64,000 nt of DNA from NCBI RefSeq assembly GCF_016903815.1, contig NZ_CP069973.1; one strand, written 5' to 3'. This document shows positions 9,601 to 12,600 of the stretch, piece after piece (the first letter of the stretch is position 1; each line of letters starts with the position of its first letter). The position numbers are program-made. The DNA is from Escherichia coli. GTDB lineage: Bacteria > Pseudomonadota > Gammaproteobacteria > Enterobacterales > Enterobacteriaceae.

Positions 9601-12600
9601 ACTTTGCAACTATGATAACCGCGCATTCAACATGGCTACCTGTTCGTCGTTCATGTCATCAATCCACATACCGTAAATTTCATACACCATCTGCGCAGTT
9701 TCATGCCCCATTTGGCTGGCTATAAATGCCGGGTTCGCTCCTGCCGTCAACAGCCAGCAGGCAAAAGTATGCCGCGTATGGTACGGATTACGGCGGCGAA
9801 TACCAGCACGTTTTACTGCTGCATTCCACCTTGCCCCCAAACTGCTTACCGAGTAATAAGGTTTTTGTTTTCCGTTACACACCCTGGGCATGAAAACAAA
9901 ATGCAGTTTTTGCTTTTCGGTTCTGCCGTACTCCCGATGATAAAAGGTGATTTCGCTTTTGCGATGATGCCCGGTCAGTTTGTATTGCTCCTTCAGTGCT
10001 TCAAGAGCAGGCTGCAGTAGTGTTACCGTCCGGATCCCCGCATTTGTTTTTGGGGGACCGAACATATCCAGTATCGTCAGGTTTCTTCTGACATTCACAA
10101 CTCCCTTCTCGAAATCCACATCCTCCCACGCCAGAGCAGCCAGTTCCCCGTGACGAAGCCCGGAGTATACGGCAAATTTCCACAAGTTCTGGCTCTGTCC
10201 TTTTTCACTTTCCATTAATGCATTGAATTCTGTTTTAGATAACGGGTCAGGCTTTATTCTGTTTCTCTGTAATTTCTTTACTCCTTCAAATGGTTTGGTT
10301 GATATAAATCCCGACTGATACGCAAAACGTAACAACGAACAGAGCAGGGCGATATAGTTATCAACTGTGCGCACGGTTCTTCCTTTTTTGTTGGATCTTG
10401 GATTATCCAGGTAAAGCGTTTCTCCATGCAGCAGTTCATTCCGGTAGTTTAAGATATCGCTATAACGAATATGCGATATCGGAGTACTCTCACAAATTAT
10501 TATCCTGAGTGTTTTTAATTGTGATTTCGTTTTCTTCATTGTGTTTGTTGTTAACTCTGTTTCTTTAATTTTTGTCCAGATATCACAAAGCTCCCCGAAC
10601 GTTTTTATGACCCTCGTTGTCACCATTTTTGCCCCAGTGCTGGACTGGGGAAAACGTCTTAAATACTCAAACTCACCGGAATTGATTTCATGAACTATCA
10701 ACGCTCTTAAATTCCCGGCTTTTTTAATGTTACTGTTAGTAACCTCCCAGCCTTTCAATGTTTCCCGACATCGTTTTCCTCGAAACATGAACCAGATGCG
10801 AATGTATTTACCTCGAATCTCGACACCTGTTGGTAATTTAGACATATCATGAGTCTTTGATAAACTGATTTATCTTTGGATAGTTATACCAGATAATCCC
10901 TCGCTTACTGTCTGGCTTCCCTAAAGGAGATACTCGTTTGAAGTGGAAGCCTTCCACCCAACAGTTCTGGCGGTATGCTTCAATTTGTCTGGCCCCCAGA
11001 CCAGTGCGAAGCATCAGGCCGTATTCAACCATCCACTCTTCATTAAAGATTACTTGTGCCATCGCATCACCTCTGGCAGGCGCCAATGTTAGACTTAAAT
11101 TGACGCCCGATGTTGATTATTAATAATCAGCTATGAAGTTTTAATTTGAATACAATGCAATTCACGAGGACTGAAGTTTCTCGCAATTAAAATTTATCAG
11201 TTTTACTTTCTGCTCTCTGGAAACGCCTGCTTCTTTTTTACCTGAGAGCATTTTTTCGCATTCTGATTTCGTTAGTTTAGATTTTGAATATCTTGTCCAG
11301 TTAGTAGGAGTGCCACCTTCCTTTTCAATAGTGGCGGTAATTTTATACATGAACACCTCCATTATTATTTCCAGTGGTTCGTTTATTTCATCGTTCGAGT
11401 GCTTCTTTTTCACTTCCACCATAACCGGTTCGGGATTCGCATCCGTTACACTTCGCTCGGTAATATCCTGAAATGGCTTTCACCGTTACTGATGGACAAC
11501 CACAAAATGGACATGGTTTAACATTGTCATATCTCATAATTTTTCTCATAAAAATATTTCAAGTTGGCGGTGCATTACACCGCCAGGCTGAATTATTCCT
11601 CTGAATTATCGATTACACTGTATTCCCCGGTTAATACAGAGGAATCTGCAGGATCGATTGTCAGTGGTTCCTTTTCATCCATTGATACTGCACGCTGGAT
11701 CTCAATTGATACGGGCAGATATTTGAACAGGCGACGAATAGCCGTTTTCTTTGCCATTTCTTCCCAGTGAGTTACCCACGGCCCGTTATTACCAGCTTTA
11801 CTCTGGCTGCGCACCAGCTCAATCTGTTTGCGCGTCATAACTTCAAACTGAGTACCTCCGTCTTTCAGTCTTGCGACAGCATAGACGTGGGTAACAGGGG
11901 CATCTTCGTTTTCTCCTGGGCGGTGTATTAACTTTTCATCAAGGCCAAATTCGAAATTAAACTCGTCACCTTCACGGACAACACGGGCTGACAAGCTGGC
12001 GATTTGACCTGAACGGCGAGCCAGATCAATCATGCCGCGATAGCCAATGATTAGCTGAACGTTTTTTTTACCGCTCTTTTCGTTTTTATTACCAAAAGGC
12101 AGTAAATATGCATGACCGAGGGCGCTACCGGGCTCAAGTCCGAGCTGTGAACACTGTACGATTGCACTGACAAAACTCATAGTGTCACAGTTTCCTAACG
12201 CCGGAACTTTACGAATTTCTGTGGTGGCGATACGGATCATACGTTCAGCCGTCATATGGCGTGGAAGAGCTGCTGCCAGTTGCTCTTTCATTGATGGCTG
12301 GTTAATAAAACTAATCACGTCGTTATTTTTAATTGCTGCTGGTGCACGGTTTCCCTGAGTTTTTTGCAGATCGGCTTTTGCGATTGGTGGTTGCTTAGTC
12401 ATTTGCATATTCCTTAGCCCAGCGGGGCAGTGATAACGTCTTAATAGCTGGCCATTCATCGGTATTGAGGCAGTCAGCCAGGGTTCGCAGATTGCGGTGA
12501 TATTCCAGCTGACCTGCCAGTTTTGCTTCTTCGCCCATCATGAAAATTTCAACCGGATAACGTCCGCATTCAATAGTTGTGCTGGCAACCAGAAAAACGA

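Follow-up and report, generated by a model that had tools for sequence, protein, structure and literature searches.

A W50* nonsense allele of ralR on a Rac-like prophage circulating in Escherichia coli

The window analysed here, a 64,000-nucleotide stretch of Escherichia coli contig NZ_CP069973.1, harbors a near-complete lambdoid Rac-like prophage of approximately 46 kb integrated at ttcA. The prophage carries kilR, sieB, ydaT, hok/sok, lysis genes, trkG, terminase and head genes; a short Hok open reading frame (ORF) adjoins a full sok match in the same element. Next to the integration site the gene order is recE-recT-ralR-rcbA-xisR-intR-ttcA, and the features of the ralR segment are listed in Table 1. 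Over 27.5 kb, the window is 99.993% identical to the urine isolate EBJ003. Colinearity with the O55:H7 strain CB9615 at the hok region was considered and failed, the window being colinear instead with an EBJ003-like clinical lineage.

Table 1. Features of the ralR segment, in window coordinates; K-12 states are given where the two sequences were compared.
Feature	Position	Strand	Description and evidence
recT	11593..12402	-	Directly upstream of ralR, same orientation; RefSeq annotation of identical/colinear records, ORF list
Extended hairpin in the recT-ralR spacer	11552..11598	-	Core GGCGGTG...CACCGCC; RNA fold -23.4 kcal/mol, z = -5.05 versus shuffles
T5 run (T6 in K-12)	11550..11554	-	Non-coding, upstream of both ATGs; sole indel versus K-12 in the region
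Second in-frame ATG, upstream	11547..11549	-	Would yield MRKIMRYDNV..., 53 aa
ralR (lar) CDS	11388..11537	-	49 codons + TGA; MRYDNV...EALER*; ORF list, translation, profile matches
RalA-pairing site in ralR mRNA	11400..11415	-	16 nt, AAGTGAAAAAGAAGCA, codons G41-A46; intact, K-12-identical
R49 codon CGA (K-12 AGA)	11391..11393	-	Synonymous; common to divergent intact copies
Premature stop TGA, codon 50 (K-12 TGG, Trp50)	11388..11390	-	Next base A (UGA-A); alignments to K-12 DH1 and divergent copies
Orphaned in-frame ralR 3' end	11343..11387	-	NKRTTGNNNGGVHV + TAA (11343-11345); identical to K-12
rcbA Shine-Dalgarno	11356-11360		GGAGG, rcbA's own
rcbA/ydaC (DUF1187)	11162..11350	-	62 aa; Pfam DUF1187 131.9 bits, profile positions 1-61/61; RefSeq annotation
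ralA antitoxin sRNA	11166..11344	+	179 nt, full length; Rfam RF02694, 225.1 bits versus gathering score 170, model positions 1-179/179
ralR-complementary segment of RalA	11228..11243	+	16 nt, TGCTTCTTTTTTACCT; intact, K-12-identical

RalR has been described as a non-specific DNase toxin repressed by RalA (Guo et al. 2014, NAR 42:6448, PMC4041452). According to the same paper, RalA is a 179-nt Hfq-dependent sRNA antisense to ydaC/rcbA and base-pairs with a 16-nt stretch inside the ralR coding sequence, 11 of the positions being contiguous (PMC4041452). In the window, ralA also lies antisense to rcbA and aligned with the K-12 sequence at 100% identity; the coordinates derived from the published 5'-end mapping are exactly those obtained with Rfam. 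With both 16-nt pairing partners in place as well, the antitoxin half of the RalR/RalA module is intact here.

The gene downstream of ralR, rcbA, ends at a TGA where K-12 has AGA and reads on to a product of 69 residues. A truncation of rcbA in the window was considered and ruled out, as the same TGA is present in divergent Rac-like copies and the match to the DUF1187 profile spans its whole length. The 62-residue form of RcbA is the ancestral one and the 69-residue K-12 form a derived state. The single-nucleotide difference at the rcbA stop (position 11164) coincides with position -2 relative to the start of ralA. The stop of ralR and the start of rcbA overlap in K-12 (ATGTATAA), whereas here ralR translation terminates 38 nt upstream of the rcbA start. 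On the other side of ralR, the spacer hairpin recurs in a divergent Rac-like module with its core stem kept and a different loop. A consensus scan of the ralR locus for promoters and terminators returned four promoter-like sites, where 1.9 would be expected, and no terminator.

Translation of the minus strand yielded a Lar-type zinc-ribbon ORF, MRYDNVKPCPFCGCPSVTVKAISGYYRAKCNGCESRTGYGGSEKEALER. The 49-residue product contains the zinc-ribbon cysteines C9, C12, C30 and C33 (CPFC...CxxC). It scored 126.9 bits against the NCBIfam RalR equivalog NF007260 (cut-off 113) over model positions 1-49 of 64, compared with 166 bits for full-length K-12 RalR. The scores were 39.0 bits against Pfam Lar_restr_allev PF14354 (cut-off 28.6) and 40.3 bits against TIGR03655, a borderline pass of the cut-off of 39.6. 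In RefSeq, an identical sequence is named RalR (WP_001443846.1) and carries no pseudogene flag. The first-pass annotation of the window had recognized a Lar-type ORF on this strand and had assigned it to ralR/lar of a Rac-type prophage; translation confirmed the former, and the profile matches and the RefSeq record bear out the latter.

The same annotation had also held that this ORF has no in-frame start, its only ATG being thrown out of frame at a T4A3 run around 11516-11520. The MRYDNV ATG (11535-11537), however, was placed inside the ralR ORF by the ORF finder and is in phase with the stop ((11537-11390) mod 3 = 0) as well as with the zinc ribbon, so the supposed loss of the start was an error of frame counting. 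The ORF is unbroken to the TGA whether it is read from the annotated ATG at 11537 or from the one at 11549. Positions 11515-11522 read GTTAAACC, which is a T2A3 and not a T4A3 run, and the K-12 sequence is the same at this site. Alignment of 470 bases with K-12 DH1 revealed four differences: the T5/T6 run, the R49 codon (CGA/AGA), codon 50 (TGA/TGG) and the end of rcbA (TGA/AGA). None of them is an indel inside the ralR coding sequence, which disposes of the proposed frameshift; the idea of a homopolymer lesion probably goes back to the T5/T6 run.

This nearby length polymorphism at 11550-11554 is what can be said for two independent lesions, a homopolymer frameshift plus a nonsense change, or for a sequencing or assembly error at a homopolymer. 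We give such explanations practically no credence. Both in-frame ATGs lie downstream of the polymorphic run, the reading frame between ATG 11537 and TGA 11390 is continuous and without any indel relative to K-12, and the identical sequence recurs in hundreds of complete genomes that were assembled independently. The ralR gene of the window has one lesion, W50*, and not two.

The nonsense change itself had been called correctly: K-12 has TGG at codon 50, and so do all of the divergent Rac-like copies that were aligned. The premature TGA followed by an in-frame tail and a TAA is likewise real, although it had been placed at 11387-11389 and its true site is 11388-11390. All 14 codons past the TGA, and the TAA itself, are unchanged with respect to K-12. 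More divergent Rac-like modules, which have another RecT-family gene and a RalR N-terminus reading MRYEKV, carry CGA-TGG at codons 49-50 and the same rcbA TGA stop as the window. On this comparison, the CGA(R49) codon of the window is probably ancestral and the AGA of K-12 derived. Polarized by these modules, the change from TGG to TGA is the sole derived change in the ralR of the window.

A 301-base query spanning the locus matched 1917 of 5426 complete E. coli genomes, where the region is annotated as recT - ralR - rcbA/DUF1187. Haplotypes at codons 49-50 were counted in the 5426 genomes using diagnostic 41-mers with both variable bases in central position. AGA-TGG was found in 1512 genomes and CGA-TGG in 127, while AGA-TGA was found in none. 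The allele of the window, CGA-TGA, was present in 309 of 5426 genomes, which is not a population frequency, as O157:H7 and further Shiga-toxin-producing strains are over-represented among these genomes. Carriers of W50* include O157:H7, O55:H7, O26 and O111 strains, clinical urine isolates and a wastewater isolate. The restriction of W50* to the CGA(R49) background fits a single origin. An exact intact immediate ancestor, that is, the ralR haplotype of the window with TGG at codon 50, was encountered in 0 of 1735 genomes with a match.

The presence of CGA-TGA in 309 complete genomes also rejects a sequencing or assembly error at the stop codon, and for so widespread an inherited haplotype read-level verification is unnecessary. 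W50* is thus an inherited allele, not a private lesion. Public data contain other, independent lesions at the C-terminus of RalR: frameshifts located after WNKRT, and two deletions that fuse ralR to rcbA, one of them joined exactly at the 16-nt repeats. This hints that loss of the RalR C-terminus is a recurrent outcome. Our literature search for a published description of a truncated ralR allele found none.

All examined carriers have the arrangement racC-recE-recT-ralR-DUF1187-xisR-intR-ttcA-dbpA. Along the 5.8-kb left end of the prophage, the window differs by 0-1 bases from an O111:H2 strain and a Galapagos wastewater strain; the adjacent host genes ttcA and dbpA diverge from those of the same two strains by 2.4-3.1%. 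Such a near-identical prophage arm beside divergent host genes indicates that the element has recently moved or recombined between divergent chromosomes. W50* is therefore a tolerated variant of a circulating element rather than decay in a fossil.

The consequences of the stop were assessed on Lar family domains. An exhaustive profile search recovered 909 relatives, and conservation was scored on 211 aligned domains (144 representatives, 31-70% identity to RalR), a set that was retrieved with RalR as query and therefore favours sequences keeping RalR motifs. Within it, W50 is conserved in 100%, N51 in 96% and R53 in 91% of the domains, compared with 95-100% for the zinc cysteines, and residues past 55 are unconserved. 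In a separate alignment of 68 sequences, the invariant columns were C9, P10, C12, C30, C33, W50, N51 and R53. Salmonella and Citrobacter homologues retain R-W-N-K/R-R. The W-N-x-R motif, located at the C-terminal end of the helix, is missing from the 49-residue product, which stops at the position of its W; the corresponding DNA (AAT AAA CGA) persists untranslated downstream of the TGA. Against PF14354, full-length RalR scored 53.5 bits over positions 2-58 and the truncated product matched over 2-52, a cost of profile positions 53-58 and 14.5 bits.

An AlphaFold2 model of RalR (mean pLDDT 77.7) contains a β-hairpin formed by residues 17-22 and 25-30 and a single helix spanning 43-53; its confidence is low from residue 54 on. 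On this model, the stop is predicted to remove the last helical turn (residues 50-53, W-N-x-R) together with a variable tail. A Foldseek search of the model against the PDB gave no match below E = 0.28, the matches being generic zinc ribbons without a nuclease-like fold. Sequence search of the PDB with RalR returned chance matches only, to a chitin-binding protein.

Published mutants bear on the same residues. According to Guo et al. 2014 (PMC4041452), RalR mutants of reduced toxicity obtained by error-prone PCR are changed at residues 14, 37, 39, 49, 51 and 52, and purified RalR K52Q does not cleave DNA; the changes described there are substitutions, not truncations. C14, T37, Y39 and R49 are kept in the 49-residue product, and N51 and K52 lie beyond the TGA and are absent from it. 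Given a motif conserved as strongly as the zinc ligands, together with the published changes at residues 49, 51 and 52, truncated RalR is most likely inactive or strongly weakened.

We propose the following course of events. A single G-to-A transition at window base 11388 converted the codon of the invariant Trp50 from TGG to TGA. The primary product is accordingly a protein of 49 residues in which the zinc ribbon with its four cysteines and the greater part of the C-terminal helix are retained, while the last helical turn (W-N-x-R) and a 10-residue tail are missing. This product would have little or no activity left, be it as a toxin or in Lar-type restriction alleviation. The allele would have arisen once, on the CGA(R49) background, and would since have been inherited and carried passively by the Rac-like prophage. 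We assign a probability of about three in four to this reading as a whole: a frame-intact Rac-like ralR with a W50* allele of single origin, the product of which has most likely lost all or much of its activity. The sequence facts, the conservation, the genome counts and the horizontal spread are observed; an abolished or sharply reduced RalR function is what we infer from the missing motif and the missing activity-linked residues. The first-pass annotation had likewise considered Lar function probably lost. That expectation remains plausible, as W-N-x-R and residues linked to toxicity are removed, although the two-lesion route by which it was reached was wrong.

What function would be lost is itself a matter of dispute. 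Guo et al. 2014 report DNase activity and no effect on restriction (PMC4041452). Restriction alleviation by Lar was reported by King & Murray 1995, a role that is contested in PMC4041452.

It was counted against a loss of function that the 49-residue protein passes all curated family cut-offs and that RefSeq has set no pseudogene flag. A zinc ribbon with a partial helix might suffice for restriction alleviation or for some other role, only the tail being dispensable. Nothing has changed in residues 1-49, zinc ribbon included, the product passes the Pfam and NCBIfam cut-offs, residues 55-64 are unconserved in the Lar family, and 309 genomes maintain the allele on a mobile prophage with no additional decay. 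The cut, however, falls ahead of the invariant W50-N51-x-R53 motif, and in PMC4041452 changes at 51 and 52 lower toxicity and K52Q abolishes DNase activity. Recency and hitch-hiking explain the persistence of the allele equally well. We consider a still functional 49-residue RalR very unlikely.

A further consideration is the stop codon itself. In a K-12 reporter, UGA readthrough amounts to about 2% at 37 °C and about 4% at 25 °C and is set by competition between Trp-tRNA-Trp and RF2 (PMC10570021). UGA-A is reported to be the context that tRNA-Trp misreads with particular ease (Engelberg-Kulka 1981, as cited in PMC5289835). In ralR, codon 50 is a TGA followed by A, and the 14 codons and the TAA behind it are intact and identical to K-12. 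Because codon 50 originally specified Trp and the sequence behind it is undamaged, a readthrough product would be exact wild-type RalR. W50* may consequently be a hypomorph rather than a null allele, UGA-A being leaky.

Readthrough would supply the 64-residue wild-type RalR at a few per cent dosage or less, and ralR would be an attenuated, possibly condition-dependent toxin or Lar gene and not a dead one. We regard this as an unlikely account of the allele. The reporter values were obtained in K-12 and at another codon site than ralR W50*. K-12 has a weak RF2 variant, so that most natural isolates should terminate better. The tail shows 0 differences among carriers, but it was orphaned too recently for its conservation to count. 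The allele may have hitch-hiked rather than been selected.

In an extended version, the UGA-A at codon 50 would be a selected 'dosage valve' that keeps RalR near-silent, with wild-type protein made at roughly the per-cent level and varying between cells and conditions, and the allele would be retained for this reason. We rate this as very unlikely. In E. coli, UGA readthrough increases at low temperature and with cAMP.

With a truncated RalR that is most likely inactive or strongly weakened as the preferred reading, the allele matters first for annotation. RalR is annotated in hundreds of genomes, among them O157:H7, O55:H7, O26 and O111 strains and clinical isolates from urine, whose product is without the invariant motif and the toxicity-linked residues, and inventories of toxin-antitoxin or anti-restriction systems that count ralR as functional are probably wrong for W50* strains. 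The locus also shows cleanly how, in nature, the toxin gene of a type I module has been hit while its antitoxin RNA is intact and the prophage still spreads. Finally, the natural TGA/TGG pair is suited to testing whether RalR acts as a toxin, as Lar or as both. Three aspects had been missed in the first-pass annotation, namely the type I toxin role of RalR/RalA with its intact antitoxin, the widespread haplotype and the leaky UGA-A.

The closest known system is RalR/RalA of the K-12 Rac prophage (PMC4041452), with which the window shares the locus, the gene order at ttcA, residues 1-49 of RalR, RalA and both 16-nt sites. It differs in having TGA at codon 50, so that the product has 49 residues in place of the 64 of K-12 and is without N51 and K52. 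K-12 in turn has AGA at R49, T6 upstream and an RcbA of 69 residues, whereas the window has CGA, T5 and 62 residues. The elements themselves are also distinct, K-12 Rac being a 23-kb remnant and the host element of the window a near-complete prophage of about 46 kb. Relative to the Lar family (PF14354, TIGR03655), the product has the common plan of a CxxC...CxxC zinc ribbon followed by a helix and lies above the gathering thresholds; in contrast to the family, it stops directly before the invariant W-N-x-R.

Most chromosomal hok genes of K-12 are disrupted, while sok-like RNAs persist. Like these hok/sok-type loci, the ralR locus combines a damaged type I toxin gene with a recognizable antitoxin RNA left in place. 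Unlike Hok, however, RalR is a soluble zinc-ribbon protein and not a membrane peptide, and its gene was hit by a single nonsense codon rather than by an IS insertion or rearrangement. The ralR locus of the window is the known RalR/RalA type I toxin-antitoxin/Lar module, with an allele already named in RefSeq, and W50* is an ordinary natural nonsense allele of it, not a new kind of system.

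Besides ralR, the prophage in the window has another type I toxin locus, comprising a Hok/Gef ORF and sok. The Hok/Gef ORF is only 41 aa long, ends …CEVRIRTGRRRL* and matches the 42-position Pfam profile over positions 1-34. A QTE… continuation appears in a different frame at ~23556-23560, which suggests a 1-nt frameshift. RefSeq labels the 41-aa ORF as an ordinary Hok/Gef protein (WP_001445775.1), and the exact segment was found in ~100 genomes.

Features of the window, with strand and supporting evidence
Feature	Coordinates	Strand	Evidence or state
FnrS sRNA	6739..6856	+	Rfam RF01796, 134.8 bits
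rcbA	11162..11350	-	
Extended hairpin, recT-ralR spacer	11552..11598	-	RNA fold -23.4 kcal/mol, z = -5.05
sok	23280..23450	+	Rfam match; adjoins Hok/Gef ORF
Hok/Gef ORF, 41 aa	23448..23573	+	Pfam profile match, RefSeq annotation
Portal-like gene (DUF4055)	34733..36139	+	Intact in window; variable base 35945

In the urine isolate EBJ003, otherwise 99.993% identical to the window, the DUF4055 portal-like gene carries Q405* and is a RefSeq pseudogene. Because this gene is intact in the window, unlike in EBJ003, the prophage copy described here may still be morphogenesis-competent. The flanking host DNA also encodes the FnrS sRNA, at a position upstream of both dbpA/ttcA and the attachment site of the prophage.

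The core stem of the recT-ralR spacer hairpin (GGCGGTG/CACCGCC) is kept in the divergent Rac-like module, where the loop differs, and the T5/T6 polymorphism sits at the 3' base of the hairpin. This element may act as an attenuator, a terminator or an mRNA-processing element between both genes; a simple terminator scan gave no call at its position.

Independent lesions of the RalR C-terminus were observed in other E. coli genomes, represented by the proteins P0012, P0015, P0005 and P0003. Two of them are in-frame ralR-rcbA deletion fusions and two are frameshifted forms. In the P0012 fusion, …GSEKEA is joined to GVSREQK… with the junction exactly at both 16-nt RalR/RalA repeats, a fusion that would also remove most of ralA.

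The structure predicted for RalR consists of just a zinc ribbon and one helix. A Foldseek search with this model detected no similarity to nuclease folds, the best match (E = 0.28) being to generic zinc ribbons; as modelled, RalR fits awkwardly with its published assignment as a Mg/Ca-dependent DNase. Many distant Lar-domain proteins (e.g., P0024, P0032 and P0045) carry 2-6 tandem Lar domains per polypeptide and reach up to 364 aa, an architecture absent from RalR.

The stop codon of rcbA in the window (11162..11164, minus strand) is TGA, versus AGA at the K-12 locus, and the SNP at 11164 is position -2 relative to the mapped ralA transcription start. The DUF1187 profile is covered in full by the 62-aa RcbA form that the window and the divergent copies have in common; the 69-aa RcbA/YdaC of K-12 is apparently the derived state, a readthrough extension produced by the change from TGA to AGA. 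Comparison of the window with the divergent Rac-like copies L003 and L004 gave 4-5 synonymous against 2 non-synonymous codon changes in rcbA, a small sample. These changes, together with the strong DUF1187 match (131.9 bits), suggest that rcbA is a genuine protein-coding gene. Such a coding reading runs against the view of Guo et al. 2014 (PMC4041452), who concluded that ydaC encodes no protein.
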